Virus record (IMG/VR): IMGVR_UViG_3300047160_005224
Span: 1 to 32,402 of that record
DNA from: a virus
Lineage: Duplodnaviria > Heunggongvirae > Uroviricota > Caudoviricetes
Direction: 5' to 3' (one strand)
Length of the DNA: 32,402 nucleotides
Shown: piece after piece, positions 5,024 to 27,076 of the stretch
Layout of the letters: every line of letters begins with the position of its first letter
Numbering within the stretch: position 1 is the first letter of the stretch
Made by a program: the position numbers and the translations under genes
The notes under the pieces: generated by a model
Databases searched by the model: none
Told to the model about the DNA's origin: nothing
The model's input: only the letters and a program-made list of their open reading frames with translations

Positions 5024-5409
5024 TTCTTTCCTATTCTGTACTTCGCAACCAACTGCCACTGATCCTTTTCTTTGAAAGGAATCACTTTGACCAATCTCAT
5101 TGGAGCAGCGTCAGCAATACGCGAAGGATCAACTACAGTCAGAAGTCCCCAATCAGAAAGCAACTGGATGATAGTGTTACGCCTCTGGACATCTTCATCA
5201 TCTAGCGATGTTGGCTTTCCATCGAGAGCGAACATTTCCTTGAAGTGGGTAATGTAGTAGCGACCACGCTTGTGCAAAATATGGCAAGACTGGTAGAGTG
5301 TTTTTGTACGTTCAGACGCAACACCGACGCGAGTCAGCGTCTCCTTGATTTTCAAGAAATCGTCTTCCTTGTTCAGCCGAACTTCTACCATTGTGTCAAC
5401 AGAAATCAT
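5020..5409 (-). CDS. regA: Translational repressor RegA
   Basis: DDFLKIKETLTRVGVAS...LYQSCHILHKRGRYYITHFKEMFALDG...RRNTIIQLLSDWGL. Start at 5409 gives an ATGA overlap with gp62. Confidence 0.96.
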   Translation of the reverse strand: MISVDTMVEVRLNKEDDFLKIKETLTRVGVASERTKTLYQSCHILHKRGRYYITHFKEMFALDGKPTSLDDEDVQRRNTIIQLLSDWGLLTVVDPSRIADAAPMRLVKVIPFKEKDQWQLVAKYRIGKK

Positions 5410-5864
5410 CGCTTCATCCCACCTGTAAATTGTTTCTCTTGAAGCTCCTCGATTTGTTCCTGAGTAAGGATCGAAGCGTATTCTTGGGCGCGACGTATGT
5501 TGCACTGGTAGTGCTTACAGATCAGCTCAATTACTTCATTTGACTCTGGCTTAAACCATTTCGAGAAGCGCTTTTCTTTTCTGACCATATTTAGCGCGCA
5601 GTCAAACTGGAGCTGTTTGTCCAAATAATGGACTTGGTTCAGGATGTTCGCTTCCATGATAGACGACATGTGGTACGAAAGTCCACGGTTCGTCAGAAAT
5701 GGGTTGTAAAGCTTCTCTGCTATCTCTGGAGTTTCGGATTGACGAATCAGATCACGTTTGTCCCATGAAACAGCATTGATGAAGTCGAATGGAGTGTATT
5801 CAGCCTTCGGCTTTTCCGATTTTGGAATTGTTTCCTTCTGTTGTTTTTGTTTCTTCGGTGCCAT
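5406..5864 (-). CDS. gp62: Clamp loader small subunit
   Basis: PFDFINAV, YNPFLTNRGLS, RKEKRFSKW and terminal GG motifs; lies upstream of regA. Start uncertain (5864 or 5882). Confidence 0.92.
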   Translation of the reverse strand: MAPKKQKQQKETIPKSEKPKAEYTPFDFINAVSWDKRDLIRQSETPEIAEKLYNPFLTNRGLSYHMSSIMEANILNQVHYLDKQLQFDCALNMVRKEKRFSKWFKPESNEVIELICKHYQCNIRRAQEYASILTQEQIEELQEKQFTGGMKR

Positions 5865-6045
5865 TATGTTGTTCTCGCTCACGTGATTTGAACACCAGAG
5901 CTATGCCGGGGTTCGCAACCAAATAATCATACAGTTCTTTGAACGCTTTGCGAGCGTCATCCATCGGTTGAACACTCAGGATCGCAGCAGCAATAGCGTC
6001 AGGAGCCGTCTTGCGGATCTCGGCGATCATCTTCTTACTGATCAT
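5800..6045 (-). CDS. Small protein (81 aa) with a major-capsid Gol-region-like peptide
   Basis: ATG 6045 overlaps the end of the upstream ORF. MIAEIRKTAPDAIAAAILSVQPM aligns ungapped to gp23 residues 76-98 of this window. Confidence 0.65.
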   Translation of the reverse strand: MISKKMIAEIRKTAPDAIAAAILSVQPMDDARKAFKELYDYLVANPGIALVFKSREREQHNGTEETKTTEGNNSKIGKAEG

Positions 6046-6226
6046 ACAGCGTAACCTTGAACAACGGAATGTATGGGGCATAGATCGAACCAGAAGAGGT
6101 TGAGATCTTCCAATATACAAATCGCTTACCTTTCCATAGAATAGATCTACGAAAAACCAGAAGTTCAGAACCGGTTTTACCAACATTCGAAGGCGTGACT
6201 ATCTTCAATTGATTGGGAACAATCAT
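6035..6226 (-). CDS. Small protein (63 aa) with a C-terminal major-capsid-like YAPYIPL peptide
   Basis: ATGA overlap with the upstream gene; GSIYAPYIPLFKV resembles gp23 GLFYCPYVPLQMV. Confidence 0.65.
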   Translation of the reverse strand: MIVPNQLKIVTPSNVGKTGSELLVFRRSILWKGKRFVYWKISTSSGSIYAPYIPLFKVTLYDQ

Positions 6227-6507
6227 GCATCAAATCCTAAGAAATTTGCTTTTGAAACAAACTTTGGATTATTTCCAGCGGCAACTTCTGCAGCATAAAT
6301 CGAATTCAATATTTCTCGATCTATTGATTTTGTCAGCTCATCAACCATACGGTCCAAGACCTTTGAATACACAGATTGTTTCTTGTCAAAGTAGACATAT
6401 TTGTGTCCCTTCCAATACTTCACTTTGCGAATGTACAACCACAATGGCGGGTCGGCCATAGAACCCAAATCGATTTTGTAAGTTTTGGTAAAGTCTACTG
6501 AAATCAT
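6223..6507 (-). CDS. Small protein (94 aa) with a major-capsid-like E...IDREIL helix
   Basis: Starts 7 nt after the gp44 stop; ELTKSIDREILNSI resembles gp23 EILAEINREVIRTI. Confidence 0.65.
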   Translation of the reverse strand: MISVDFTKTYKIDLGSMADPPLWLYIRKVKYWKGHKYVYFDKKQSVYSKVLDRMVDELTKSIDREILNSIYAAEVAAGNNPKFVSKANFLGFDA

Positions 6508-6513
6508 TTTCGC

Positions 6514-7449
6514 TCACAAGAACTCCACTTCCGTCATCACCTGCGTCAAGAACGCGACGAGGCAGACTTCGGCGTCAGCAACGAAGTTGATCTTGTACTG
6601 ATAGTCAGCAATCAAGAGAACCAATGCCGGAATGGAACTTGGCTTAACCACTTCAAATGCTTCATCATAGAACTTGCGCATCAAAGATGTTGGCTCAGAA
6701 TCCATGTTCTCGCCAACCCACTTGCGCATTTCCTTCCACTTCTTGGTCTTCACCAGTTCGACAAGACCCTTGAAATTCTCATCATTCATGTTGACAAGAA
6801 TGCCAGAATCGATCGTTCCGGTAGCACTGTAACGCTGAAGCTCATTCAGAACACGGCGCCAGTCAGGGAAGTGCTTCATGATCACAGCAGCAACCACTTT
6901 CTGATCGAACGTCACACTTTCCTGCTCAAGAATCTGAGCAGTTCGCTTCATAAACTGACCAGCGATCTTCGGCTTATCGGCTGCCTGAATCTTGAATTCA
7001 ACCACCGAACAACGTGAATGCAATGGCTGGATAATCTTGTTCTTGAAGTTACAAGTCAAGATGAAGCCACAGTTCTTGGAGAACTCCTCCATGAAGTTAC
7101 GCAAGGATGCCTGCGTCAGAGGAGGCAGATAATCAGCCTCATCCAGAATCACCATCTTGCGTCCACCAGTGAGTGAAACACTGGAAGCGAAATTCATGAT
7201 CTGCGTGCGGAGAGTATCGATGCCGCCGTTCATCGATGAGTTGATGATCATGTAGTCGATACCAAGTTCATCACACATCGCGCGCGCGATCGTAGTCTTG
7301 CCGGTGCCAGCGCCACCAGTGAGCAGAAGGTTTGGAATGTTGTTGTTATCAACAAACTGTTGGAAGGTTTTCTTCAGGTCTTCCGGAAGAATGGTCTCGG
7401 AGACTTTGTGCGGACGGTACTTCTCAACCCAAAGGAAATCATCGTTCAT
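6514..7449 (-). CDS. gp44: Clamp loader large subunit (AAA+ ATPase)
   Basis: LWVEKYRP, GGAGTGKTT (Walker A), ILDEAD (Walker B), LHSRC and HFPDWRR. Confidence 0.97.
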   Translation of the reverse strand: MNDDFLWVEKYRPHKVSETILPEDLKKTFQQFVDNNNIPNLLLTGGAGTGKTTIARAMCDELGIDYMIINSSMNGGIDTLRTQIMNFASSVSLTGGRKMVILDEADYLPPLTQASLRNFMEEFSKNCGFILTCNFKNKIIQPLHSRCSVVEFKIQAADKPKIAGQFMKRTAQILEQESVTFDQKVVAAVIMKHFPDWRRVLNELQRYSATGTIDSGILVNMNDENFKGLVELVKTKKWKEMRKWVGENMDSEPTSLMRKFYDEAFEVVKPSSIPALVLLIADYQYKINFVADAEVCLVAFLTQVMTEVEFL

Positions 7450-7464
7450 TATGTAATCTCACAT

Positions 7465-7499
7465 CAAAAGAAGAGCCGATTGCGTTGCACAATCGGCTC
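7465..7499 (-). terminator. Intrinsic terminator
   Basis: 10-bp stem GAGCCGATTG/CAATCGGCTC followed by TTCTTTTG on the minus strand. Confidence 0.7.
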
Positions 7500-7504
7500 G
7501 GTCA

Positions 7505-7702
7505 TCAGACAGACTCAGTCGGTTCTTCAATCACTTCTTCAACGAAGATATCACGATCCGAGTAAACGTGAAGGATGATTCCTTCACCAAAGGTCAGCAC
7601 TTTGACCTCTTCCTTCTTTCTACCTTTCTTCGAAACATAACCGACACGGAGCTTACCAGAAGCTCCAACATCAGTATGTTCTACACGCACAGCAATCGTC
7701 AC
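7505..7702 (-). CDS. Hypothetical protein, 65 aa
   Basis: GTGA overlap with the gp45 stop; ends just before the terminator. Confidence 0.6.
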   Translation of the reverse strand: MTIAVRVEHTDVGASGKLRVGYVSKKGRKKEEVKVLTFGEGIILHVYSDRDIFVEEVIEEPTESV

Positions 7703-10280: not shown

Positions 10281-10819
10281 TACCTCACAAATTGTTTACG
10301 CAAGGATTCAAGTTTCTTGCGTTTTGCCATTTTCTTCAAGGCAAGATTCCTTGCCATAGGACCAGCTAAATCCAGGAAATTCTTGCCTTCCTGATGATCA
10401 AACTCATGTTGGAAGATTCGAGCAGTCATACCCGTGAACGTGTGTGTTACCGTTTCACCATTCGGTTGAGTGAATCGAACCTTGATATTCTTTGGACGTT
10501 TGACTTTCACAAACACGCCAGGGAACGAAAGACATCCCTCATCCAACATCACTTCTTCGTTGCCAACATCAACGATCTTCGGATTGAAACAGACTGTGAT
10601 GGGATTTGTTGCCATAGCAAACACGCGATATGGCAACCCGATCTGGTTTGCAGAAATGCCAACTCCCTTGTACTTGATCAGTGCTTGTGCGAGCAGATGA
10701 GACAACTCAACAGGATCAGTGGGAGGATTAGCAAAATCAAATACGGTGGTGGGATGAGAAAGAATCGAATCACTCTCAGGCACCAGTGCAGGAATTTGGA
10801 GAACGGGTCTATCATTCAT
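10280..10819 (-). CDS. def: Peptide deformylase
   Basis: All three PDF motifs present: GVGISANQIG, EGCLSFPG and QHEFDH. Confidence 0.95.
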   Translation of the reverse strand: MNDRPVLQIPALVPESDSILSHPTTVFDFANPPTDPVELSHLLAQALIKYKGVGISANQIGLPYRVFAMATNPITVCFNPKIVDVGNEEVMLDEGCLSFPGVFVKVKRPKNIKVRFTQPNGETVTHTFTGMTARIFQHEFDHQEGKNFLDLAGPMARNLALKKMAKRKKLESLRKQFVR

Positions 10820-12153
10820 CAGAAAAATTGATCAAGTGTTTGAACCTGCTGCTTTACAGCCTCAGGATGATATTGCTCAAGGAGGGATTGTCCGCCAGCA
10901 TAGGCTGACAGATAGTCATACCATTCTTGCTGTTCGAACATAGACGGAGAAACACCGTTCCATTGCGGACGCCATTCGGGATGGCTTTCGTTCAGACGAC
11001 GGCTTTCTACATAGTCACGGCGCGCAGTTTCGTATTCCCAGCTACCAAGGTCAAGCATCTTTTCGCGAAAATACGCGACGATACTCATGCGTTCGATGCC
11101 TTCTGGATTACCATCTACTGCTTCTATCGGAGTATTGCCATGAATAGCATCGTGGTTAGCAATAAGGAGCAAATCACCAGGACGAATGTTGATAGCAACA
11201 CGATACTCAGGAAGAACGAGATAGCCACCTTTGAAATCCTTGCCAGTTGAGATGACACCAAGATTCGAAAATCCAGAGCCGAGATCGCCTGCGTCAAGGT
11301 GCGCTGCCGTGCGGAATGTCTTGTTCACCGTCAGAGTGGTGAACACCGTGTCCTCACCAACGAGGAAACGCTTGTCCAGGCGATCTGCGGCTGCTTTCTG
11401 GTTAGCAAATCGACCAGGAAGAAGTTTCTCAAAACACTTATTTAGCTTGCGCAGATAAGGAAAGCTTTTGGCAAACAACTCAGGATTTTTCGCATTGTAT
11501 GCGCAAGAGCGTCCATACGGATAGCGTGGATAGCGATCAAAGAAACCTGCCACGCCAGAATTGACTGGGTTGGCATAAGTGGTTTGGCTGATGCAGGTCT
11601 TCGCGTAGTCCCGAGCTACAACCGATCGTTCTTCAGATGGCAGATCAATTACAGACTCAAGCCACCGATCGAAGAAGCCTTCGTATTCTTCTCCGCTCTT
11701 AAGTATCTTGGAGCGAAGCCATACGAGACCGCGCGAGGAGTCCTCTTTGTACGAAGCCTTAGCCTTGATGTGAGCACGAATTGGATCTTGACCATCAAGA
11801 CGTGCAGAAGGCTTCATCAGGATGTCAAGCGCATCCAATTGCCAATCTGTAACCCATTCACGACCTTGCAACTTTTCTCCTTTCGGACCAGCGGCAAGAC
11901 CGCGATTTTGGGTCTCAATTGCTGCACCAATCAGACCTTCATGTACACCTTTCTGATCTGCTGCAGAAAACACACCTTGGCGAAACTTGAAAAGACACAC
12001 GGTCTCATCTGCACCAACTTCGCCATCAAGAGAATTCACACGAGCATAAGCATCAGTGTCAGAATCCACCAGGATGTCGTAATTGGATTGGTCTAGAAAT
12101 TTTCCTAGCAGGTGCGTGCAATCCTGCTTTTCACGAATTAGAGTCTGTACCAT
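10819..12153 (-). CDS. TET/JBP-family 2OG-Fe(II) dioxygenase
   Basis: FTTLTVNKTFRTAAHLDAGD (HxD), GGYLVLPEY, GDLLL..NH..IHGNTPI (distal His) and RMSIVAYFREKM (2OG-binding Arg). Confidence 0.88.
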   Translation of the reverse strand: MVQTLIREKQDCTHLLGKFLDQSNYDILVDSDTDAYARVNSLDGEVGADETVCLFKFRQGVFSAADQKGVHEGLIGAAIETQNRGLAAGPKGEKLQGREWVTDWQLDALDILMKPSARLDGQDPIRAHIKAKASYKEDSSRGLVWLRSKILKSGEEYEGFFDRWLESVIDLPSEERSVVARDYAKTCISQTTYANPVNSGVAGFFDRYPRYPYGRSCAYNAKNPELFAKSFPYLRKLNKCFEKLLPGRFANQKAAADRLDKRFLVGEDTVFTTLTVNKTFRTAAHLDAGDLGSGFSNLGVISTGKDFKGGYLVLPEYRVAINIRPGDLLLIANHDAIHGNTPIEAVDGNPEGIERMSIVAYFREKMLDLGSWEYETARRDYVESRRLNESHPEWRPQWNGVSPSMFEQQEWYDYLSAYAGGQSLLEQYHPEAVKQQVQTLDQFF

Positions 12154-12694
12154 TCAGCTTGTTCTTGATTATGTGAGCAATCCGAGCAGTATCTGCCGGC
12201 GTTTCATGCGTAAACTTTTCCAACACCATCATGACGTTGAAATTGGTCATGATGTTTGCGTACTTGGTTTCGCGTCCACGAATGAACTGTTCGGACTGAT
12301 TAGAACCACGTTCAGCATAACGGGCTTCACGTGTCTTAGGATCAACTTCAAGATAGAGAATCGAAGTGTCGTAATTGTCAAGGCAATGTTCAATGAACGA
12401 AAGATTCGTAAGGCGATCGCCTTCAAACAACACACCTTTAACTCCACGAACACTGCATTCCTTCAGGAATTTGACAGCTTCTGGCTGAACTGCCATACTC
12501 ATACGGTCAGTACCAGCAAAAACTTCGCCATCTTCGTATTTGCCGAGGATGACATAATTCCCAAAAGCATGGAACGGCACTAACTTGATTTGGGTGAACA
12601 TCTGTTTCCATTCACCCATTGTTTTCATCACTTCACGAACCAGTGTGGTTTTTCCAGTTCCAGGTTCGCCCATCACAATAACAACATGCATCAT
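12131..12694 (-). CDS. P-loop kinase resembling phage 5-hydroxymethyluracil DNA kinases
   Basis: GEPGTGKTT, FAGTDRMSMAVQP, FEGDRL and RGSNQSEQFIRGRETK; adjacent to an aGPT-Pplase-like gene. Confidence 0.8.
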   Translation of the reverse strand: MMHVVIVMGEPGTGKTTLVREVMKTMGEWKQMFTQIKLVPFHAFGNYVILGKYEDGEVFAGTDRMSMAVQPEAVKFLKECSVRGVKGVLFEGDRLTNLSFIEHCLDNYDTSILYLEVDPKTREARYAERGSNQSEQFIRGRETKYANIMTNFNVMMVLEKFTHETPADTARIAHIIKNKLNGTDSNS

Positions 12695-13773
12695 GTATCT
12701 CCAAAGAAACTCTCTAGAGGAAGAATTTCCGGTTTCGCATCCGAATACAGATATTCTAACCTCTGAACACCACCAAAGTCAATAAAATGGCTCATTCGTC
12801 CTTCGACAATACGTCCTTGAAGCAGTTCTGGATGTGATTTCAAGATAGGATGTTCAGTCCTAGAATCCCATAGTGGCTTCCAGAAGATACCATCCCAGCC
12901 ATCATTCGCAACAGTACTGATTTCCTCAGCCTGACGATCGAGATAGTATCCAAGATAACGACCATGCTTCACCCTGAAGATCTTCTTGAAGGAACACAAC
13001 GCTGTTTCCATCGTGAAATAATCAACAAGATGAAATGCTTCTGGACGAGTTGTCATAACTCGATCTTTGACTTCATCCAATATCAATTCAGCTTCATTTT
13101 CCATCCACTGATATTCTTCGGACGTCAGCTTCTTGTTAACCCAATCGTCCATGCCAAGAGCTAAGCATAGACCATTACGATGTGAACGAGAACCATTGTA
13201 ATCATCGAGAATGAGATTTGGTGGATCAATGTTCATTCCGCAACACTGCTTCAGTGTCTGAAGATAGAACCAAGTTGTGTATCTACCGAATTTATATAGA
13301 TGATTACTGAGTTCAGCAAACAGAACTTTGAAGTTTTCTTGCGGTGTTCTATCAACCTTTACGAATTTCGCGAAGGCTTCTTCTTGCGCCCCTCCGTTTT
13401 GGAAGACCCATTCTCGATAGGACTTGTATTGGGCTCCGAGGTGACCTTTGTTGTACTTGGTGTCGGTTTGGTATCGGAGTCGCTTGAAGTTGCTAGTGTT
13501 CCACGAATCAATTCGTGCTTGGTCCACGAGCTCAAAATCTGGGAATTCATTCCATATCACCCATGTTGTTGGAAAGTAATAAGTGGTTCCGTACAGCCAG
13601 GAAATCCAAAGCTTCTGTTCGCGATTGTGTTCAAATCGAGAAAACAGATAGTTGGTCATGAAAATAGCAGGATCGCAGTCATCATGATGAATGCTCCAAT
13701 GGAACCATCGGATGAACAGCTCCTTGCGTTCAGAATAGATCGAGTTTTGCGCCACTGGCAACGTTCTCGTCAT
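12691..13773 (-). CDS. Amino acid:DNA transferase (alpha-glutamyl/putrescinyl thymine pyrophosphorylase-like, HhH-glycosylase fold)
   Basis: FGRYTTWFYLQ, GSRSHRNGL, METALCSFKK and RYLGYYLDRQAEEI motifs; next to the P-loop kinase. Confidence 0.8.
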   Translation of the reverse strand: MTRTLPVAQNSIYSERKELFIRWFHWSIHHDDCDPAIFMTNYLFSRFEHNREQKLWISWLYGTTYYFPTTWVIWNEFPDFELVDQARIDSWNTSNFKRLRYQTDTKYNKGHLGAQYKSYREWVFQNGGAQEEAFAKFVKVDRTPQENFKVLFAELSNHLYKFGRYTTWFYLQTLKQCCGMNIDPPNLILDDYNGSRSHRNGLCLALGMDDWVNKKLTSEEYQWMENEAELILDEVKDRVMTTRPEAFHLVDYFTMETALCSFKKIFRVKHGRYLGYYLDRQAEEISTVANDGWDGIFWKPLWDSRTEHPILKSHPELLQGRIVEGRMSHFIDFGGVQRLEYLYSDAKPEILPLESFFGDT

Positions 13774-14509
13774 AGCACTTCTTGAATTGAATGGTCATCT
13801 TCAGACCAATATCGAGCGTCTGATTCTTTCCTGATTCATCCTCACGAACCTTAATGTATCGTGGATGAAGTGATTGAAGTTTGAGCATACTCGCTCGATT
13901 GTTTTCCGCTGTGCGCGTGATGGAGCAACCGCCAGGAGCGTGTGGTTTGTATTCATGCGACACATAATCGCCAGTGTAACGAAGTCGGCGACCGGATTCG
14001 ACAACAGAAATCGGAACATGGAAGTCTGAATAGAACTGAAGAACATCGTATCGAATGTTCTTCTCTTTCATGTAGTCACGATCCATGAAGAAACAGTGAC
14101 TAGGCTTTCCATAGAAATATTCTGGCGGATTCAGATGTGACAGAAATGAATTTGATGTGCCACAATAGACATCGCCTTCTTCCAACCACTTCTCCATGAG
14201 ATCAAGAACTTCGCCACAGTCCTCAAGACGAGTGCGTTTCTTGCGATTCTCTGAATCGATCTTGTAAAACGTCAGATCATCATCAAGCATGCCTACATGT
14301 GATGATTCAGACTGCGTGATGATCCATTGACGTGTCTTACAGATGGATCCGATGCATTCCTTCGGAACATCGACGCGCAATCCATCCCATTGTGGATGGA
14401 CTTCTTCTTTCGGACATACCAGGAACACGCGATCCTTCCAGCATTCCGGAATCCACTTAGTGGTGATCAGCTTGTTTTCACGCCCGAGCGTCGGGATGTA
14501 GACTTGCAT
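13730..14509 (-). CDS. GT-A glycosyltransferase resembling TET-associated glycosyltransferases
   Basis: VYIPTLGR, ICKTRQWI, MLDDDLTF and PGGCS..RT motifs. Confidence 0.75.
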   Translation of the reverse strand: MQVYIPTLGRENKLITTKWIPECWKDRVFLVCPKEEVHPQWDGLRVDVPKECIGSICKTRQWIITQSESSHVGMLDDDLTFYKIDSENRKKRTRLEDCGEVLDLMEKWLEEGDVYCGTSNSFLSHLNPPEYFYGKPSHCFFMDRDYMKEKNIRYDVLQFYSDFHVPISVVESGRRLRYTGDYVSHEYKPHAPGGCSITRTAENNRASMLKLQSLHPRYIKVREDESGKNQTLDIGLKMTIQFKKCYDENVASGAKLDLF

Positions 14510-14925
14510 CAGAGTTCCTTGATATTGTCTTCGATGAGCTGCACAACGTGATCGAAGTATGCATCGTCCTTCGAGAAGTGTGGATCTGGAACATCATCAT
14601 TTTCCAGAAATATCACGCATTTCATCGAGGCATTGAATCCAAATTCAAACATGACTCGTTCGTAATGGATTTGACCCATACAGACGATCACATCAGCCCA
14701 GTCAACCAATTCCTCGGTCAACTTTTTGGATTTGCGTAATGGAACTGCATATCCTTTACGCAGCAGCGCATCACGCATACGCTTGTTTGGAGATTTTCCG
14801 CCAGCAGTCTTTCCAGTTCCTGCGGAATCAATTTCGTAAGACGAAGGCAATCGTTCCTGCGCGATTGCATGCGCGGCATAAGAACGATTCAAATTACCTG
14901 TGCAAAGGTAAAGGATCTTCTTCAT
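14509..14925 (-). CDS. Low-molecular-weight protein tyrosine phosphatase/ArsC-fold protein
   Basis: LYLCTGNLNRS (CX5R), DSAGT, ADVIVCM and DVPDP. Confidence 0.88.
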   Translation of the reverse strand: MKKILYLCTGNLNRSYAAHAIAQERLPSSYEIDSAGTGKTAGGKSPNKRMRDALLRKGYAVPLRKSKKLTEELVDWADVIVCMGQIHYERVMFEFGFNASMKCVIFLENDDVPDPHFSKDDAYFDHVVQLIEDNIKEL

Positions 14926-15848
14926 TCTTCAATCCTACCAGTCTTCTTGTAATGCTCAATTCGACGAGCAATGTCTTTGCGGTTATTGGAATCATGGTTC
15001 GTCAACTGATAACCACATTCCAACTCATAGTTGTATTCCTGGAAATCAGGAAACTTCCATTCGCTTCGCCAGAACAATTCTTTTGGTCGTGCAGATCCAG
15101 TAATCACTGGAGCATTCAGAACGTTATCCAAATAATCACGGCACCAGCGGATGCACGATTCCATCTCAACGAGATCAGTCGTTCCAGGAAAGTGACGGAA
15201 TTCAATCGTCTCCGTTTCTTCCCACATCTGACGCAAATTGATGCCTTCGCGTGGGCTAAAGAACCACATGCGTCCTTTATCTGTCAACGGAGCGTGTTCT
15301 TCATAGAACTCTTGCACCGTCTTAGCAGCAAGAATTGCGTTGGTGCGCGAAGCAGGAAGCATGTATTGGTGTGAGCGTTGACGACGCTTGTAGCGTTTCA
15401 TAGCACCATCGTATGCTTCTTTCGACATCTTTGCAGGATTGGGAACAGGGATGGTCTCGATCACATTGAATGCTTCCTGAGCATGCTCGATGTTGTAACG
15501 CATCAATCTCTTACACATCTCCAGGTCTTGGCTTAGACCGGGAACGCGCACATGGATATGAAGATTACATCTGTAGTTAATGACTGCTGGGTAGCCAGAA
15601 TCAACCAATGCTTGATTGATCTCAGCCACCACCTGCACCTGTTCTTCAACCGTCGAAGTTGGACGCGTGTTGATTTCACCGCCGAACTCCCACAACTTTC
15701 CTTGTGGATCATTTGCGATGCCTGTAGAATTTACAATGGTGTTGTCTTTCGTATTCCACGCGCAACCTTCTGGGAGCGGTGTACCAAATTTCACGTCGGC
15801 GTATTCAAGTTCAACGCCATACGTGAATGTCGAGGGATTATATTTCAT
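14922..15848 (-). CDS. Putative amidoligase (COOH-NH2 ligase, glutamine-synthetase-like fold)
   Basis: TYGVELE, GGEINTRP, CNLHIHV and TIEFRHFPGT. Confidence 0.82.
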   Translation of the reverse strand: MKYNPSTFTYGVELEYADVKFGTPLPEGCAWNTKDNTIVNSTGIANDPQGKLWEFGGEINTRPTSTVEEQVQVVAEINQALVDSGYPAVINYRCNLHIHVRVPGLSQDLEMCKRLMRYNIEHAQEAFNVIETIPVPNPAKMSKEAYDGAMKRYKRRQRSHQYMLPASRTNAILAAKTVQEFYEEHAPLTDKGRMWFFSPREGINLRQMWEETETIEFRHFPGTTDLVEMESCIRWCRDYLDNVLNAPVITGSARPKELFWRSEWKFPDFQEYNYELECGYQLTNHDSNNRKDIARRIEHYKKTGRIEE

Positions 15849-15854
15849 TGAGTC

Positions 15855-16571
15855 TCAGTGTTGGAGATCGTTGTCAGGAAGTCTAATCTGAGTTAAACTC
15901 AAACGCAATGGCTTTTCTTCTAGAGAAACGCTGTAGTTGGCGCACGGTTGACATTCTTTGATTTGAGAAGGAAGACCTGCACCGCTCCTCAAAAGAATGT
16001 CCTTTGTAGAAGCTACTGCGATGTAGTTTTCGGCATAGACGTAATACAACGGGCGTTGTTCATTTCGCCAAAAGGAAACAGTTTCATCAATAGCATCAAG
16101 CACAATGCATGCTTGACTAGACGGAACGATGTTCAGAGGATGCCGTTCTTGTTCATAGACACGTAGCAAGATCTCTGAATCATTCTTGGTGGTGCATTCA
16201 ATTCCATAGGTGTCATTCCAAGTCGATGGATCCGCCTGACTAACGACACCATTGTGAATGAGAGCAATATCAGTCTCATAGTTTGCTAAATTGATTGCGA
16301 CCATCGGCTGATTGTAACTTAGATCAGAAGTCGAATATCGACAATGAACTATCGCCGCACGAACATTGTAACCATAAGCAAGATGTTCTAGTGGAAACAC
16401 ACTTGCAGGCACAGAAAGGACGTTGTGGTCCAAGAAGTTGTTATCATGAAGGACAGCAGCACCCGTGGCATGTTGTCCTCTGATCTGCGCTTCATTTGCC
16501 ATTGCGCGCAAGAGTTCCGTTGGGAAACTCCTGTCATAATTCAAATTGATTAAACCAATTACGCCGCACAT
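15855..16571 (-). CDS. Class II (Ntn) glutamine amidotransferase
   Basis: N-terminal MCGVIG (nucleophilic Cys2), RGQHATG, HCRYST, HNG and NDSE. Confidence 0.92.
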   Translation of the reverse strand: MCGVIGLINLNYDRSFPTELLRAMANEAQIRGQHATGAAVLHDNNFLDHNVLSVPASVFPLEHLAYGYNVRAAIVHCRYSTSDLSYNQPMVAINLANYETDIALIHNGVVSQADPSTWNDTYGIECTTKNDSEILLRVYEQERHPLNIVPSSQACIVLDAIDETVSFWRNEQRPLYYVYAENYIAVASTKDILLRSGAGLPSQIKECQPCANYSVSLEEKPLRLSLTQIRLPDNDLQH

Positions 16572-18289
16572 TATGCTGCCTTTGCCATTACAGAGAAGTC
16601 GTTGTGTTTCTCGAACTTGATCACAGAGTGGAATTTGTCGAACAATTGATCGCCACGGTGACTGATGATAAACAAGTTGGTGTCCTTAGTCAACTCCTCG
16701 ATGATCTTGAGGAATTCTTCAGTACCAGCATGGTCCATCGCACCGTCAAGCACTTCATCCATGATCAACAGATTTGTTGATGCAGAATTACGAAGCTTCG
16801 CAACCGCGCGCCAGGTGAACAAAATTGCCAAATTGATGCGCAGCTTTTCGCCTTCCGAGAAGGACTGATAGCTGAACTCATCACGAAATCGAGATTTGAT
16901 CACTTCGTTGAACTGTTCGTCAAGCTCAAAGTGAACAAAGAAGTCCATCGCAGCGAGATACTTGTTGATCAACTTGTTCATGACTGGAACATACTTCTTG
17001 ATCACAGTCGCCTTGATACCACCATCCTTCAAGATGGAAGCTGCGATAGTCTGAGTAGAAGATTCCTTCACTAGGACTTCGCGCTGCTTTTCCTTCTGTA
17101 CCAACTCATCCTGAAGTTCGAACAATTTCGATGCATCATTGTTCTGTTGTTGAGTTTTCTGCAGCTCTTCAAGCTCAGATTCCAAGGAAACCAGATGCTT
17201 CTTTTCCGCCATCAAGGAAGCCTTGATTGAGGCGAGTTGAGAATTCACGCTGTTGATGCTACGTTGAACTGCAGCAATTTCAACAGCACGATCTTGCGCT
17301 ACTTTGTATTTAGATTCAAGAAGAACCACACCAGACTTGATCTTTTCAATCTCAGCCTGCTTCTCAACGATCGTTGAGTCCTTGAAATCATGGTCGATGC
17401 CTTGTTTACAAGAAGGACAGGTATCGTTGTTATGATAGAACAACACTTCCTTATCAAGACGCTGAATACGATCCTGAACCTTTTCTCGCATGCCCTGGAG
17501 TTTGTTAATCAACTCAGAGACTTCAGAAGCATCATCAATCGAATTGATGAGGTCAGACAAATCAGCCTGACGGTGAACTCCATCTTCATTCAGTGAATCA
17601 ATGGAATGATTCGCTTGTGAAATCTTCAACTGTCGATCTGCAATAAGCGCCTTCGTATCACGATTCAGGGTCTCAATCAAGGACTCCTGCATTGTGATTC
17701 GCTCTTTCACCAAATCAATTTGGTACTTGACATCGGATTGCGCTTCCTTGTTTTGCTGAATACGGTCCTTCAACAAGCCATTCATCACGGAGAACACCTG
17801 AATATCCAGGAGGTCTTCAATAACTTCTCGGCGTGAATACGCAGAAAGCTGCATGAATGGAACGTAGGTTGCCGAACCGAGCACGACAACCTGACAGAAG
17901 GAGCGATGATTCAGTTTCAAGACGTTCTTTTCCAGATACTCCTGATAGTCCCTTGAAGAAGCATCCTGATTCAGAAGTACATCATCCTTGTACACCTCAA
18001 AGATCGCTGGACGCATTCCACGCCGAACGATGTACTCTGAACCACCAACATTGAATTTCACTTCAACAACGCAGTTCTTTCCGTTGATAGAATTGATCAA
18101 CTGTGGTTTGTTGATTTTGCGAAATGGCTTGTTGTAGAGCGCGAAACATAGCGCATCAAGGATGGTGGATTTACCAGCACCATTCATACCAACGATGAGA
18201 GTCGATCGGTGGCGATCTAGCTGAATTTCGGTTGGATGATTTCCAGTTGACAGAAAGTTCTGCCAACTGACAGATTTGAAGTGGATCAA
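16571..18289 (-). CDS. gp46: Recombination endonuclease ATPase subunit (Rad50/SbcC-like)
   Basis: NFLSTGN, GMNGAGKST, CPSC zinc hook, FSEGEK and MDEVLDG. Confidence 0.97.
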   Translation of the reverse strand: MIHFKSVSWQNFLSTGNHPTEIQLDRHRSTLIVGMNGAGKSTILDALCFALYNKPFRKINKPQLINSINGKNCVVEVKFNVGGSEYIVRRGMRPAIFEVYKDDVLLNQDASSRDYQEYLEKNVLKLNHRSFCQVVVLGSATYVPFMQLSAYSRREVIEDLLDIQVFSVMNGLLKDRIQQNKEAQSDVKYQIDLVKERITMQESLIETLNRDTKALIADRQLKISQANHSIDSLNEDGVHRQADLSDLINSIDDASEVSELINKLQGMREKVQDRIQRLDKEVLFYHNNDTCPSCKQGIDHDFKDSTIVEKQAEIEKIKSGVVLLESKYKVAQDRAVEIAAVQRSINSVNSQLASIKASLMAEKKHLVSLESELEELQKTQQQNNDASKLFELQDELVQKEKQREVLVKESSTQTIAASILKDGGIKATVIKKYVPVMNKLINKYLAAMDFFVHFELDEQFNEVIKSRFRDEFSYQSFSEGEKLRINLAILFTWRAVAKLRNSASTNLLIMDEVLDGAMDHAGTEEFLKIIEELTKDTNLFIISHRGDQLFDKFHSVIKFEKHNDFSVMAKAA

Positions 18290-18513
18290 CTAGATTTTCC
18301 TAGAAAGGGACCATGTTCCTTGATATAAGAAACAACTGCATCCATCAATTCGTTGCCAATCGCACTATGCGATTCAGATCTAATATCAATGGAGTTTGCA
18401 TTGTATTCCTGAAGGAATTCCAAAGTCAGACTCAAAGTGAAATTCAAATGTAACTTCGGTTGGTAAGTTACTTCATTCACAGTAAATTCGTGAGATTTGA
18501 TTTCAATCGTCAT
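18286..18513 (-). CDS. Hypothetical protein between gp47 and gp46
   Basis: 4-nt overlaps with both neighbours. Confidence 0.6.
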   Translation of the reverse strand: MTIEIKSHEFTVNEVTYQPKLHLNFTLSLTLEFLQEYNANSIDIRSESHSAIGNELMDAVVSYIKEHGPFLGKSS

Positions 18514-19598
18514 TGTGTCGTCGAATCCATTGTTAGTGCCTCATTATACAGAGATGTCAACAAAGCATCAAGCTCTGCCGCCTGCGAGGCATTATCGTTT
18601 ACATACGATGAAGCAAATTTGCGCATGATAGTGAGTGTATCTTCAGCTTCACTAATGATGCTATCGGCGTCTTCGAAATCAAGTGTCAGTCGATCATCAA
18701 TAACCTTGAGATCTACAACACCGAGTTTCTCAATTCGTTCAACAAGAAGATCGAACCAATATGGATTGGTCTTATTATGCACGACCAACTTCACATAACA
18801 ATCCTTTACATGATCAATCGGCATGTTCAGGATGTCATCCAGCGTGAAATTGGAATCGTTGTAGACAATCTTGTGGAACAAATTGAACGGGTTCTTTACG
18901 AACGTCAACTCGCGCGTATCAGTATCGAACACATGGAAGCCGCGAGGATCGTCGTAGTCTGACCAAGTCATCTCATATGGAGCACCGAGATAATTGATGT
19001 TACCACGAGTTGATTTGTGATGGAAGTGACCAGAACAGACAACTTCAAAACGCGAGAAGATGTCAGGAGAGTAGCCATGTTCAGTTGGCGAACCCTTGTA
19101 CATCTCGAAACCAGCAACCTCCAGGTGACCGAACAAGCACTGAGCATCAGTGTTGTTGATCATAGCCATGGCGTCAGAGAAGTTGTCGGCGCAAATCCAA
19201 GGCATCATGACGATCTTGGTTCCATCCAACACTTCTTCAGTTGGATCTTGGTACCACTTGAACTTGTCATATGAATGTCCGCGGAACAAAACGTCCATGG
19301 AATTCACTTCGTTCGTGTTTTTGTAGAAGGTGTCGTGATTGCCTACGATAACACCAACATCAAGGTCACGATCTCTACATGGATCGATGAAGTTCATGCG
19401 CATGTTTCGCGCTGTCACATAGTTGATGTACTTGCGACGATCAACAATGTCGCCCAGATGGCGCACATACTTGATGTCATGTTCATCGATGTAAGGGAAG
19501 AACACTTCACGATAGAACTTGGCCTGATGCGCCGCGATGATTTGATTATCATCACGAACGCCCCAGTGAGTGTCTGTAATCAGCGCAACCTTAGCCAT
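18510..19598 (-). CDS. gp47: Recombination endonuclease nuclease subunit (Mre11/SbcD-like)
   Basis: ITDTHWG, HLGDIVDRRK, GNHD, GHLE and SGHFH. Confidence 0.96.
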   Translation of the reverse strand: MAKVALITDTHWGVRDDNQIIAAHQAKFYREVFFPYIDEHDIKYVRHLGDIVDRRKYINYVTARNMRMNFIDPCRDRDLDVGVIVGNHDTFYKNTNEVNSMDVLFRGHSYDKFKWYQDPTEEVLDGTKIVMMPWICADNFSDAMAMINNTDAQCLFGHLEVAGFEMYKGSPTEHGYSPDIFSRFEVVCSGHFHHKSTRGNINYLGAPYEMTWSDYDDPRGFHVFDTDTRELTFVKNPFNLFHKIVYNDSNFTLDDILNMPIDHVKDCYVKLVVHNKTNPYWFDLLVERIEKLGVVDLKVIDDRLTLDFEDADSIISEAEDTLTIMRKFASSYVNDNASQAAELDALLTSLYNEALTMDSTTQ

Positions 19599-20244
19599 CG
19601 AGATTGTCCGGTTCTGGAATGACTTCCAGCTCAGCATCCAACTCCGGATCTTCTACTGTCGGCTCGATGAACTTCTCAACACCGCGCTTTTTCTTTTCGC
19701 GCTTGGCTTTCGCCGTCTTTTCCTTTGCTTCGAAGTTCTTGATGAACTCCTGCATAAATTCATTTTCAGGATTGACTTCAATGCCGAAGTCTTCGCTTAC
19801 GTCATGGTCAGAAATTTCTGCCAGACCTTCCTGAATCATGTTCTGCTTCACTTTGTATTTCGTGTACGTGTGTACCTTCTCGCGGTGAATTCTCCGCAAG
19901 AAAGCAAAGTAGACGATTTGGGTGAAGTAAGAAAAGGGCTTGCCTTTCTCAGGATCGAAGTTGTATGCATAGAGCAGGCAGTTCTCGATCCCATCAGAGA
20001 TCATTTCCTCGATGTACCAATATTTGTTGAGGAAGTTCTTGTGGCGAGCTAAACGCTGCGCGATCTGGAGAATACACTTGCCTGCATATTCCGGGAGACG
20101 GGGTTCCGGAAGACCATTTGATTTCGTATGGTCATACTTCGTTTTGTACTCAACCATCGCAGCCATGAACTTCTCTGGATCGATGTAATAGTTGGACGGT
20201 AGAGTTGGTGAAATCGGGTCTTTAACCCGAGATGAATCTGACAT
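19591..20244 (-). CDS. gp55: Late-transcription sigma factor
   Basis: EEMISDGIENCLLY..NFDPEK..PFSYFTQIVYFAFLRRI.REK. Start at 20244 lies downstream of a candidate promoter. Confidence 0.95.
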   Translation of the reverse strand: MSDSSRVKDPISPTLPSNYYIDPEKFMAAMVEYKTKYDHTKSNGLPEPRLPEYAGKCILQIAQRLARHKNFLNKYWYIEEMISDGIENCLLYAYNFDPEKGKPFSYFTQIVYFAFLRRIHREKVHTYTKYKVKQNMIQEGLAEISDHDVSEDFGIEVNPENEFMQEFIKNFEAKEKTAKAKREKKKRGVEKFIEPTVEDPELDAELEVIPEPDNLDG

Positions 20245-20274
20245 CAAATACCCTGTTCCACGAATTTCCAGCGA

Positions 20275-20304
20275 ATCATAAGTGTTTTCAGGTACCAAAG
20301 TCAA
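20275..20304 (-). promoter_or_regulatory. Sigma70-like promoter for gp55
   Basis: TTGACT, 18 nt, TATGAT on the minus strand. Confidence 0.55.
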
Positions 20305-20330
20305 CGTCAAACTAACAGTCATCAGTAATC

Positions 20331-24017: not shown

Positions 24018-24605
24018 TCAACTACCAAACGTGTAACCGAACCTTTCTATGACTGCCTTGTCCAATTCTGCAACTGTATCAATAGTTGCTTTCTTCTTGT
24101 AGTAATCAGCATAGCTGGCAAATTGCTTTGTTGATGTGTTGGAACGCAAGTCAGTTAGTTCTACACCGATCCTTTTGGAAATCAAAGGAAGAAAGGTAGC
24201 ACGATCTTCAAATTGAAACACCGTGTCCACTCCATTGATCCAACGAAGCTGTGGATGCTCAGAAGGATTGGCATTGATGAATTTGTTCTTCACCAAATAC
24301 ACCCATTCATCGAATGAGTACAACGCAGCGCCTCCAGGATTGGAATTCGATTTTGGCTTCGGTGCATGCGGGCTGTAGTACAGATGCTCGTACAAACTCA
24401 CGTAGCGATCCCAGGGATTCCGAACAAACGCGAACTTCCAGTATTCAGACCAAGTTTCTTGGAACAGAAACTGTTTCGCTGCTTCAGTCGATACATGTTG
24501 GAATGGATTTAGCGATTGTTCGACGTCCAACATTCTCGAAATCGAGTTGCCACCTGTTCGCGGATTATGGAAGAACACGCACTTTGATTTCTGTAGCACG
24601 ATCAT
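24018..24605 (-). CDS. Sulfotransferase family 2-like protein, copy 2
   Basis: FFHNPRTGGNSI (5'-PSB-like), KFAFVRNPWDRYVSLY (3'-PB-like) and terminal FGYTF. Confidence 0.85.
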   Translation of the reverse strand: MIVLQKSKCVFFHNPRTGGNSISRMLDVEQSLNPFQHVSTEAAKQFLFQETWSEYWKFAFVRNPWDRYVSLYEHLYYSPHAPKPKSNSNPGGAALYSFDEWVYLVKNKFINANPSEHPQLRWINGVDTVFQFEDRATFLPLISKRIGVELTDLRSNTSTKQFASYADYYKKKATIDTVAELDKAVIERFGYTFGS

Positions 24606-25033
24606 CAGAAAGTGTATCCAAATTTCTCAATGGTTTCATGTTCCAATCTAGCAATCATGTCAATTGTAGATTTGGACGTGTAGTATGATTGGTATGCTGA
24701 ATGTTGAGTTGTGTTGATTCGATCAAGAGGTTTCAACATAGGCATATGCTGTTTGATTTCCTCAATCGCCGAATCCATTTCTTCCATCTTGAACACCACA
24801 TCAGCTTCTTTCCACCAAATCGACTGGGTTTCAGAAAACCATGTTGATGACACGAACTTGTTGTAGTTCAGATAGACCCAGTCTTTGAAGTTGTTGCTCA
24901 TAGCAATTTTCTTGGATTCGACGTTGCGTCGGAAGATGTAGTCGCTCTGGCGATGGAACTCGTACAAACTCACGTAGCGATCCCAGGGATTCCGAACAAA
25001 CGCGAACTTCCAGTATTCAGACCAAGTTTCTTG
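24387..25033. repeat. Perfect 75-nt direct repeat (24387-24461 and 24959-25033)
   Basis: Base-by-base comparison: ctcgtacaaactcacgtagcgatcccagggattccgaacaaacgcgaacttccagtattcagaccaagtttcttg occurs in both. Confidence 0.95.
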
Positions 25034-25174
25034 AAAGATGAATTGCTTGGCTTCTGCTGGAGTGAAATGAGACAATCGAGTTTCTAGCTGATGCCCGAAC
25101 ACAGTGAAGATGGACAGTCCAGCAGTTTTTGGCACGTGTAAGAACACGACCTTATGACGTTGATCAATGAACAT
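24605..25174 (-). CDS. Sulfotransferase family 2-like protein, copy 1
   Basis: FLHVPKTAGLSI, KFAFVRNPWDRYVSLY and terminal FGYTF. Confidence 0.87.
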   Translation of the reverse strand: MFIDQRHKVVFLHVPKTAGLSIFTVFGHQLETRLSHFTPAEAKQFIFQETWSEYWKFAFVRNPWDRYVSLYEFHRQSDYIFRRNVESKKIAMSNNFKDWVYLNYNKFVSSTWFSETQSIWWKEADVVFKMEEMDSAIEEIKQHMPMLKPLDRINTTQHSAYQSYYTSKSTIDMIARLEHETIEKFGYTF

Positions 25175-25695
25175 TATTTGGAATACCTGGCACTTGCTTT
25201 GAGACTTTTGGAAATATTAGCTCGATGTTCGGGAGAAAGTTTCATCCCTACACGAGCAGCACGTAAAGCTGCTTTATGTTCTTCGCTAAAAGGCTTGCCT
25301 TTCTTTGCAGCAGAAATCTTAGCACCTCTTCCTTCTTCAGCTGGAAGGGATTTTCCTCTCCGTGCATCTCCTGATTTCTGAGCAATTGAACGTGCATCAG
25401 GTGTAGCAGACCAATGACCAAAGCGTCGTTTACTCATGTTGTAATATCGCTTACCTAATTCATCATTCGGTATCAGTTGCAGCCATCGGTGCTCAGCTTC
25501 TAAAAGATCTACACGAGAAGTGTAAATTCGTTCGATGACGCGTCTACGAAAATGTTCAGGATTTCGTTTGTACGCAATACGCATCCTTTCTGATGAACAG
25601 AGATATCCATCATCTTCAGTTCCCCAGTGACAACCGATGTACCATTTGTTCTTTTTGGTGTTATGCCAAATGTACACAAATCCATATTTTTCCAT
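25174..25695 (-). mobile_element. Free-standing GIY-YIG (Seg-like) homing endonuclease with NUMOD3-like repeats
   Basis: GFVYIW...YIGCHWG..DDGYLCSS; C-terminal KISAAKKGK.FSEEHK and LSPEHRANISKS. Confidence 0.87.
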
Positions 25696-25771: not shown

Positions 25772-27076
25772 TCACATCAGGTTGTTCACGAGGAAACGAC
25801 GGTAGTAGACGTTCGAGTTGGCAACCAGAGCACCAGAACCGACAGTCAGACCCTGAGCATATGGGTTTGCCACGATGCCGTAACGAGTCTTGAAGCCGAT
25901 CTTCGGCTGGAAGCTGTCTTGACCAACAGCGCGAACCATCTGCAGCGGAACGTATGGGCAGTAGAACAGACCAGCGTCCATGGAGCTTGCGCCCTTGTAG
26001 CCGATGGTGATGTAGTTACCGATTGCATACGGGTCGATGTAGACGCGGATACGTCCGTTCAGAACACCAGCGAAGGTGTTACCGGTGTCGTCAACCTGCA
26101 GGTTGTTCGAGTTCAGAGCTGGGGTGTAGTCCAGAACGCCAGCCATCTGCAGTGCCGAAGCAACGTCAGAGGAGCAGATCAGGATGTTGCCCTTACCACG
26201 ACGAGTTGCCTTAGCAACAGCGTTCGCGTCACGTTCCAGCTGGAAGTGCAGACCCTTGAACTTTTCAACCGACCAACGACCGTTAGAGTCGGTGTCGAGG
26301 TCGAAGATACCCTGGGTAGCAGTGTTATCCTGCGCACCAGCTGTAGCAGTTACGTTGATGGTACGAATGACTTCGCGGTTGATTTCTGCCAGGATTTCTG
26401 TGGTCAGAATGTTGGCCAGCTCGGTCTCGGCGTCCAGACCATGAATTGCCTTCAGGTCCTGTGCCAGTTCCATCGTGTACTCAGCCTTCAGAGCACGAGA
26501 CTGAGCAACAACGGTTACCTTCTCGATGGAGAACGCCATCTGAGCGAAAGCAACGTTGGAGTCAGAACCGAGAGCTTCGGACTGAGCGGTGGACATACCA
26601 CCCGCGTAGTTGTAGGTGTTAACGTCACCAGCCGGCAGAGAGCCTACGTGCTTCTGACCGATGGTGTTAGCGCCAGATACAACAGAAGAGAACGCAGTGT
26701 TAACTTCGTTGTAGAAGGTTTCAGAACCAGTCTGGTTTGCGTAGCGCGAGCGCATTGCAAAGATCAGGCCAGTAGGACCAGTCATCGGCTGAACGCCGCA
26801 CAGGTCGTAAGCAACCAGGTTCGGCATTGCGCGGCGAACGAGTGTGATCAGGACCGGGTCATAGTTCGAAATGCCAGCACCGGTTGCGTTAGCAGGGACC
26901 GGATCTTCGCTCAGAAGCGACGCTGGGGCAAAAGCACCCTGTGAACGAATATCATTCAGAGTGTTTTCCAGAACTACGCCAGTGACATCACGAACCTGCT
27001 GAGACTTGAACTTCGGCATTTCGTCATTGTCAAGAACTGGACCCCACTTCTGGTTGAGTTCTTCGTTTAGATACAT
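25772..27076 (-). CDS. gp23: Major capsid protein
   Basis: LVRRAMPNLVAYDLCGVQPMTGPTGLIFAMR, SRALKAEYTMELAQDLKAIHGLDAE and FQPKIGFKTRYG. Confidence 0.99.
   Translation of the reverse strand: MYLNEELNQKWGPVLDNDEMPKFKSQQVRDVTGVVLENTLNDIRSQGAFAPASLLSEDPVPANATGAGISNYDPVLITLVRRAMPNLVAYDLCGVQPMTGPTGLIFAMRSRYANQTGSETFYNEVNTAFSSVVSGANTIGQKHVGSLPAGDVNTYNYAGGMSTAQSEALGSDSNVAFAQMAFSIEKVTVVAQSRALKAEYTMELAQDLKAIHGLDAETELANILTTEILAEINREVIRTINVTATAGAQDNTATQGIFDLDTDSNGRWSVEKFKGLHFQLERDANAVAKATRRGKGNILICSSDVASALQMAGVLDYTPALNSNNLQVDDTGNTFAGVLNGRIRVYIDPYAIGNYITIGYKGASSMDAGLFYCPYVPLQMVRAVGQDSFQPKIGFKTRYGIVANPYAQGLTVGSGALVANSNVYYRRFLVNNLM

Follow-up and report, generated by a model that had tools for sequence, protein, structure and literature searches.

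Of the known triggers of bacterial immunity, the major capsid protein is, to our knowledge, the most common, and the constraints on it are too strong for mutation to remove the trigger. The Gol region of the T4 capsid protein gp23, 29 residues long, binds EF-Tu and activates Lit (PMC3014915). CmdTAC is likewise triggered by gp23, and no gp23 escape mutants are reported for it (PMC11618068). Together with Avs7/8/10 (10.64898/2026.01.04.697583) and CapRel (PMC9712102), which also respond to the major capsid protein, it belongs to the candidate target classes for the genes described here; no capsid-fragment inhibitor of any of these systems is described in the literature examined. That occupying the trigger site of a sensor can inhibit it is known from DSAD1, a small phage protein directed against DSR2 (PMC11087589).

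We describe here mini-genes, lying among the replication genes of a T4-like virus, that are built around fragments of gp23. The literature searched contained no description of such capsid-fragment mini-genes. The anatomy of the array is new, and if the decoy reading holds, its function would resemble that of DSAD1, since the array proteins would likewise occupy the trigger site of a sensor; their size and operon context would suit small accessory genes expressed before the trigger. DSAD1, however, is proven and has one target, whereas the array genes have a putative function, copy the sequence of the trigger recognizably and stand in shuffled arrays.

The DNA analysed, referred to below as the window, is a stretch of 32,402 nucleotides, the first 32.4 kb of the complete 166,771-base record of the virus, whose closest isolate by gp44 is Stenotrophomonas phage DLP6 (72%). 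Three small ORFs lie within the replication operon gp45-44-62-regA (clamp, clamp loader and regA), between gp44 and gp62, at the positions that the preliminary description had given them:

6514-7449, minus strand: gp44, large subunit of the clamp loader, upstream flank (phrog_168, E 2e-119)
6223-6507, minus strand: ORF c, 94 aa, a gp23-like strand, a hairpin module and a piece of the gp23 spine helix (hhalign, family profile, model)
6035-6226, minus strand: ORF b, 63 aa, a hairpin module and the gp23 Y-x-P-Y strand (hhalign, family profile)
5800-6045, minus strand: ORF a, 81 aa, a Gol-region piece and a family-specific helix, no hairpin module; its tail overlaps gp62
5406-5864, minus strand: gp62, small subunit of the clamp loader, downstream flank (ATG at 5864, stop at 5406; phrog_225, E 5e-39)
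25772-27076, minus strand: gp23, major capsid protein and model of the pieces (phrog_138, E 1.5e-159; T4 gp23 structures)

The gp44 stop lies 6 nt before the start of ORF c. The genes had been described as overlapping, which they are, by 4 nt (c/b, at ATGA), 11 nt (b/a) and 65 nt (a/gp62), and as translationally coupled, which we infer. Because of the 65-nt overlap, the tail of ORF a, its last 21 codons, is gp62 sequence in a different reading frame. gp44 and gp62 had been taken to be normally adjacent; an insert of at least 100 nt separates them in 78 of 153 related loci, which marks a hot spot of insertion in general; in distant phages unrelated genes mostly fill it. A scan of the window for late-promoter boxes found none near ORFs a, b and c, and the only two perfect boxes precede gp22 and gp23. 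Since these are the sole perfect boxes, and given the operon context, the three ORFs are probably expressed pre-late, as had been proposed. Sigma-70 sites occur at chance level. Directly before gp44 lies a terminator-like hairpin of 12 pairs with a T tail (7473-7499, minus strand), a possible attenuator of the transcription that enters gp44 and the array. A 65-aa ORF between gp45 and gp44 (7505-7702, minus strand) has positional counterparts clade-wide and no family match. Elsewhere on the minus strand of the window, two tandem sulfotransferase-like genes (24018-25174; phrog_3347, E about 1e-12) lie just downstream of gp23, as does a homing endonuclease gene (25174-25695; phrog_314), and one relative has a TET/JBP gene at the place equivalent to the gene run 10819-16571.

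The pieces that resemble gp23 are the following:

6466-6492, minus strand: c residues 6-14, a degenerate copy of gp23 strand 192-203, clearer in loci L255, L256 and L260
6298-6339, minus strand: c residues 57-70, like gp23 227-240, in the long backbone helix
6053-6091, minus strand: b residues 46-58, like gp23 369-381
5962-6030, minus strand: a residues 6-28, like gp23 76-98, equivalent to T4 gp23 95-117 in the Gol region
26783-26851, 26468-26500, 26357-26398 and 25934-25972, minus strand: the gp23 segments matching the pieces

As single sequences, the ORFs match gp23 weakly and in no case significantly (genome-wide E 0.9 to over 30). In a blastp comparison of gp23 with the six frames of the genome, b appeared at E 8.4 and a at E 18, and a gp23 profile of 81 sequences gave E 0.9 for a and 11 for b; c was absent from the matches listed in both. 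The Pfam family Gp23 (PF07068) reaches ORF a at E 0.011 and 15.5 bits, below the curated cut-off of 24.4, and matches neither b nor c. The significance of the likeness comes from shuffles of each ORF and from family profiles. Profile comparison with shuffled controls, suggested in the preliminary description, came out in its favour: against 300 shuffles of each ORF, none beat a or b and one beat c, and the three rank 1, 2 and 4 among the roughly 190 small ORFs of the genome. The identities to gp23 given there were recounted as 8/23 (a), 7/13 (b) and, by hand, 5/14 (c). Relatives, including 17 homologs for family a, were collected by similarity to the ORFs and not to gp23. Aligned with gp23 by hhalign, family a gave a probability of 92 (E 6e-7), family c an E of 7e-5 over gp23 192-246, and family b, which is partly circular because its members were chosen by eye inside syntenic arrays, a probability of 91 (E 1e-6). 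Of 15 core-protein families compared, gp23 came first for each of the three ORFs, two to five orders of magnitude ahead of the rest, and it was the sole match in all 15 family-profile searches of whole genomes of other T4-like phages (5/5 for each family). Judged by these comparisons, the gp23 homology of all three pieces is real.

ORF c is a two-part copy in which gp23 strand 192-203 is joined to backbone helix 220-241 and an insert replaces the intervening loop. The statement that the sequence flanking the pieces is unrelated to gp23 thus fails for c, which also retains the strand, and stands for the hairpin module, which is not gp23-derived. With the gp23/gp24 capsid family (PF07068) the mini-genes have homologous segments of 13-50 residues in common; they differ in being only 63-94 aa long, below the Pfam cut-off, non-colinear, devoid of a late promoter and probably unable to form the HK97 fold alone. 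No further gp23 fragments were found elsewhere in the 166.8-kb genome, including in a 75-aa ORF between gp47 and gp46 (18286-18513, minus strand), which sits where Xanthomonas phages X1 and BUDD have a member of family a and shows no significant match to gp23 or PHROGs. A second stand-alone gp23 fragment, in a 97-aa frame (E 1.5e-5), lies distant from gp23 in a 283-kb phage (G001:C1:229450-229566, minus strand).

Direct IMG/VR scans with ORF a or b returned no relatives. Five small unnamed PHROGs (12830, 21284, 27117, 13936 and 14392) match the same three pieces weakly, over short stretches (E 1e-4 to 0.03), which suggests that the class sits unrecognized in databases. No PADLOC defence model matched significantly, the one hit being that of c to PDC-M24A (E 0.0034, 15 bits). 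In the ESM Atlas the named neighbours of c are all capsid families (scores 0.77-0.78, a lead only) and b found nothing.

ORF a residues 6-28 align to T4 gp23 95-117, inside the Gol region, whose boundaries in T4 gp23 we take to be 94-122 and 13 residues of which are reportedly needed for activity according to scanning mutagenesis. Families d and f copy the same region and extend further; ORFs b and c copy other gp23 segments. Gol is part of gp23 and a trigger, whereas ORF a is a separate, probably pre-late gene. Its piece ends at QPM, without the C-terminal five Gol residues, and shows family-wide core substitutions, the aromatic-Asp and Cys-Gly positions of gp23 being replaced. Instead of a hairpin module, a family-specific helix follows the invariant SVQPM:

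5914-5961, minus strand: a residues 29-44, family-conserved amphipathic helix of non-gp23 origin

Members of family a are also found at the gp44-gp62 site of the cultured phage DLP6 (AAY80_039, E 4e-10), between gp47 and gp46 in phages X1 and BUDD, and before a topoisomerase gene. ORFs b and c have in common a carrier of another kind:

6391-6429, minus strand: basic-aromatic hairpin module in c (R-x4-WKG-x2-Y-V-Y)
6113-6151, minus strand: hairpin module in b, near-identical to that of family-d genes

This module of 13 residues (R-x4-WKG-x2-aromatic-V-aromatic) occurs in 23 array sequences, nowhere in the genome of the window outside the array, and recurs with swapped capsid pieces. ORF b fills the slot of family d with nearly the same module and carries the Y-x-P-Y strand where d has a Gol-type piece; the carrier is thus shared and the pieces on it are swapped. 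The module is missing from families a and e and from most of g, locus L261 retains a Y-x-P-Y piece without it, and none of the nine arrays holds a module-only gene devoid of a capsid piece. An origin of the module in the gp23 A-domain hairpin was rejected as unproven (E 0.85 for the module alignment alone). An origin in gp55 was rejected as well: c of L255 reached E 4e-6 with 30 sequences, but the profile-profile probability is 3%. A conserved stretch of gp55 (19591-20322, minus strand) weakly resembles the linker and module of c. ORF c is modelled as a confident beta-hairpin (23-44) followed by a lone long helix (46-76) with no globular core (pTM 0.42), and ORF a as three helices (pTM 0.31). 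Fold searches were uninformative and are not evidence of a new fold: the best match for c had Z 3.9, with no Foldseek match below E 0.07, and a had no match.

The array is hypervariable, genes being gained, lost and re-paired among relatives, and the three-gene cassette of the preliminary description is one state of it and not a fixed unit. In eight other loci of the clade (gp62 identity 83-88%) the gp44-gp62 interval contains from one to seven mini-genes: c only in L006 and L007; c, d and a in L005; g, c and a in L256; g, b, c and a in L260; g, c and the bare Y-x-P-Y piece in L261; five genes in L251; seven in L252-L254; at least four and a methyltransferase in L255. Family c is present in 9/9 close loci and family a in 7/9; families c and d also occur beside tRNA genes in L262. 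The arrays cover at least five gp23 segments (about 68-119, 180-233, 220-241, 272-317 and 360-383), and the Gol region is copied up to three times within one array. All 26 array ORFs tested score above their shuffles (22 beat 300/300, four of c type beat 291-299), and the methyltransferase, used as a control, gave no score. Likeness to gp23 is graded, from 17/30 identical residues in the strongest copies (E 1e-8) down to 5/22; the window copies are among the most drifted, the helix of c having 5/22 identities versus 10/22 in L255.

The methyltransferase (L255:274-930) is of FkbM type (PF05050) and is embedded in the array. Family-d genes (L005:3597-3896, L251:2847-3083, L252:3278-3523, L255:1213-1446, L260:2874-3044) overlap the 3' end of c by at least 100 nt; gene callers miss them, and b in L260. 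Two distant phages, with gp44 53-55% identical, have a gp23 191-233 piece at this position too, inside a 140-aa protein whose carrier differs (L008:3389-3814, L009:3365-3811). Genes for related, by inspection GIY-YIG-like, endonucleases lie just before gp44 in opposite orientations (L253:452-1093, plus strand; L256:1093-1656, minus strand).

The array genes are coding and evolve fast, under selection that is purifying yet relaxed. In pairwise comparisons a has a dN/dS of 0.14-0.49 and c one of 0.11-0.49, with 0.11-0.14 in close pairs (c of L256/L260, a of L251/L255); the value for gp62 is 0.03-0.08. The invariant columns of families a and b fall in the capsid piece. The capsid-like segment, whose conservation among homologs the preliminary description had proposed as a check, is not more constrained than its carrier. 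In ORF a pN/pS is 0.48 for the piece (0.32 for its last 12 residues) against 0.53 for the helix, in c 0.43 for the helix piece against 0.25 for the module, and in b 0.64 for the strand against 0.31 for the module, all values being pooled, uncorrected and drawn from few codons; arms-race change or fading ancestry could both fit them. The order of the pieces along the array (227-240, 369-381, 76-98) is not colinear with gp23, nucleotide identity to gp23 is 39-69% and confined to the pieces, and the codons of residues identical to gp23 are mostly not shared. The resemblance to gp23 goes far back and has been maintained at the level of the protein. A decayed gp23 duplicate, which the preliminary description had also set aside, is ruled out by the non-colinear order, the weak DNA likeness with diverged synonymous sites, and dN/dS below 1.

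What the mini-genes do can be read in several ways. We favour, tentatively, the possibility that they are pre-late antagonists of host factors reading unfolded capsid protein. Through translational coupling the array proteins would be made before gp23, as extended peptides and not globular domains. They would present segments presumably hidden in the folded form of gp23 and open in its nascent chain, and so bind what nascent gp23 binds, occupying its readers (EF-Tu/Lit-type, chaperone-coupled toxin-antitoxin or other peptide-reading sensors) without triggering them. A trigger may become an antagonist through the systematic family-a substitutions at aromatic-Asp and Cys-Gly and through fusion to the hairpin or helix. 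Different pieces would cover different sensors, which would account for the turnover of the array. We favour this reading because gp23 is the only protein copied, with the same conserved segments used repeatedly, and because the array turns over as conflict genes do, for which changing array content and the same carrier with different pieces would be expected; because gp23 has been established as a trigger (PMC3014915, PMC11618068); and because competition at a trigger site has a precedent (PMC11087589). The dN/dS values below 1, the invariant columns of a and b in the capsid piece and the lack of a nearby late promoter also count for it. The capsid pieces being no more constrained than the carrier, and the marked drift of the window copies, count against a simple decoy. 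Chief among the difficulties are also the usually activating effect of free trigger peptides and the recognition of the fold by Avs7-type sensors: the free Gol peptide activates Lit and does not jam it (PMC3014915), free trigger peptides at HigC compete in the activating direction (10.1101/2024.02.24.581848), and Avs7 needs the folded capsid monomer (10.64898/2026.01.04.697583). It is rather doubtful that the array is, beyond this, a modular recombining library of capsid epitopes, in which a reusable hairpin carrier bears interchangeable gp23 pieces, each neutralizing a different sensor.

The same pieces may act on the capsid protein itself, by inserting into nascent gp23 (fragment complementation) or holding its chaperonin, and so act as a poison on head assembly in T4-like phages that infect the same cell, or restrain or tune gp23 that the phage itself makes too early. 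All of them come from the conserved gp23 core and would be exposed hydrophobic faces able to pair with unfolded gp23, c is predicted to lack a globular core, being a hairpin and an isolated helix of 30 residues, and gp23 alone is copied (0/14 other core proteins). We consider such an action unlikely: T4-like phages hardly differ in these segments, and a poison would therefore also strike the gp23 of the phage that makes it, drift from gp23 weakens self-pairing, and the pre-late location speaks against a part of the virion. It is about equally unlikely that the gp23 fragments were raw material only, that the work is done by the basic-aromatic hairpin, as a binder of nucleic acid, ribosome or membrane, or else by the family-specific helix, and that the capsid likeness is a fading mark of descent. 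Within b and c nothing is better conserved than the module (pN/pS 0.25-0.31), which recurs in 23 sequences and is unrelated to gp23 (E 0.85), and the gradient of gp23 likeness fits such fading; yet families a, e and most of g are kept without the module, no array holds it alone, L261 keeps the Y-x-P-Y piece without it, and the repeated choice of gp23 alone is left unexplained. Near-neutral debris, gp23 pieces captured at the insertion hot spot and decaying there, would explain the high turnover and the pairs that reach dN/dS 0.5. We find it improbable, since purifying selection in close pairs indicates that the array genes are not debris, the frames stay open and coupled despite near-saturated synonymous divergence, family a persists in distant phages at other sites, and the fragments are always in the gp23 frame. 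More improbable still is the co-assembly of the products into a split miniature of the capsid P-domain core, a decoy at the level of the fold. The source segments of a, b and c, which we take to pack together in the HK97 fold, and the presence of c in 9/9 and of a in 7/9 close loci point that way; array content is not fixed, L006 and L007 carry c alone, and a occurs alone in DLP6, X1 and BUDD.

If the antagonist reading is true, genes built from fragments of a trigger would represent a new route of escape, pointing to the epitopes that sensors read, and if the array is an epitope library, such arrays would map the capsid surfaces read by bacterial immunity. It would then also become possible to test directly why the Gol region is so conserved, a question of long standing. 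The locus adds a syntenic series of nine loci that shows gain, loss and swapping of pieces, and the cultured phage DLP6, which carries one member at the same site, allows tests there. Even with another function, fragments of one of the phage's own proteins, kept under selection and shuffled in an array with a common carrier, represent an undescribed route of gene making.
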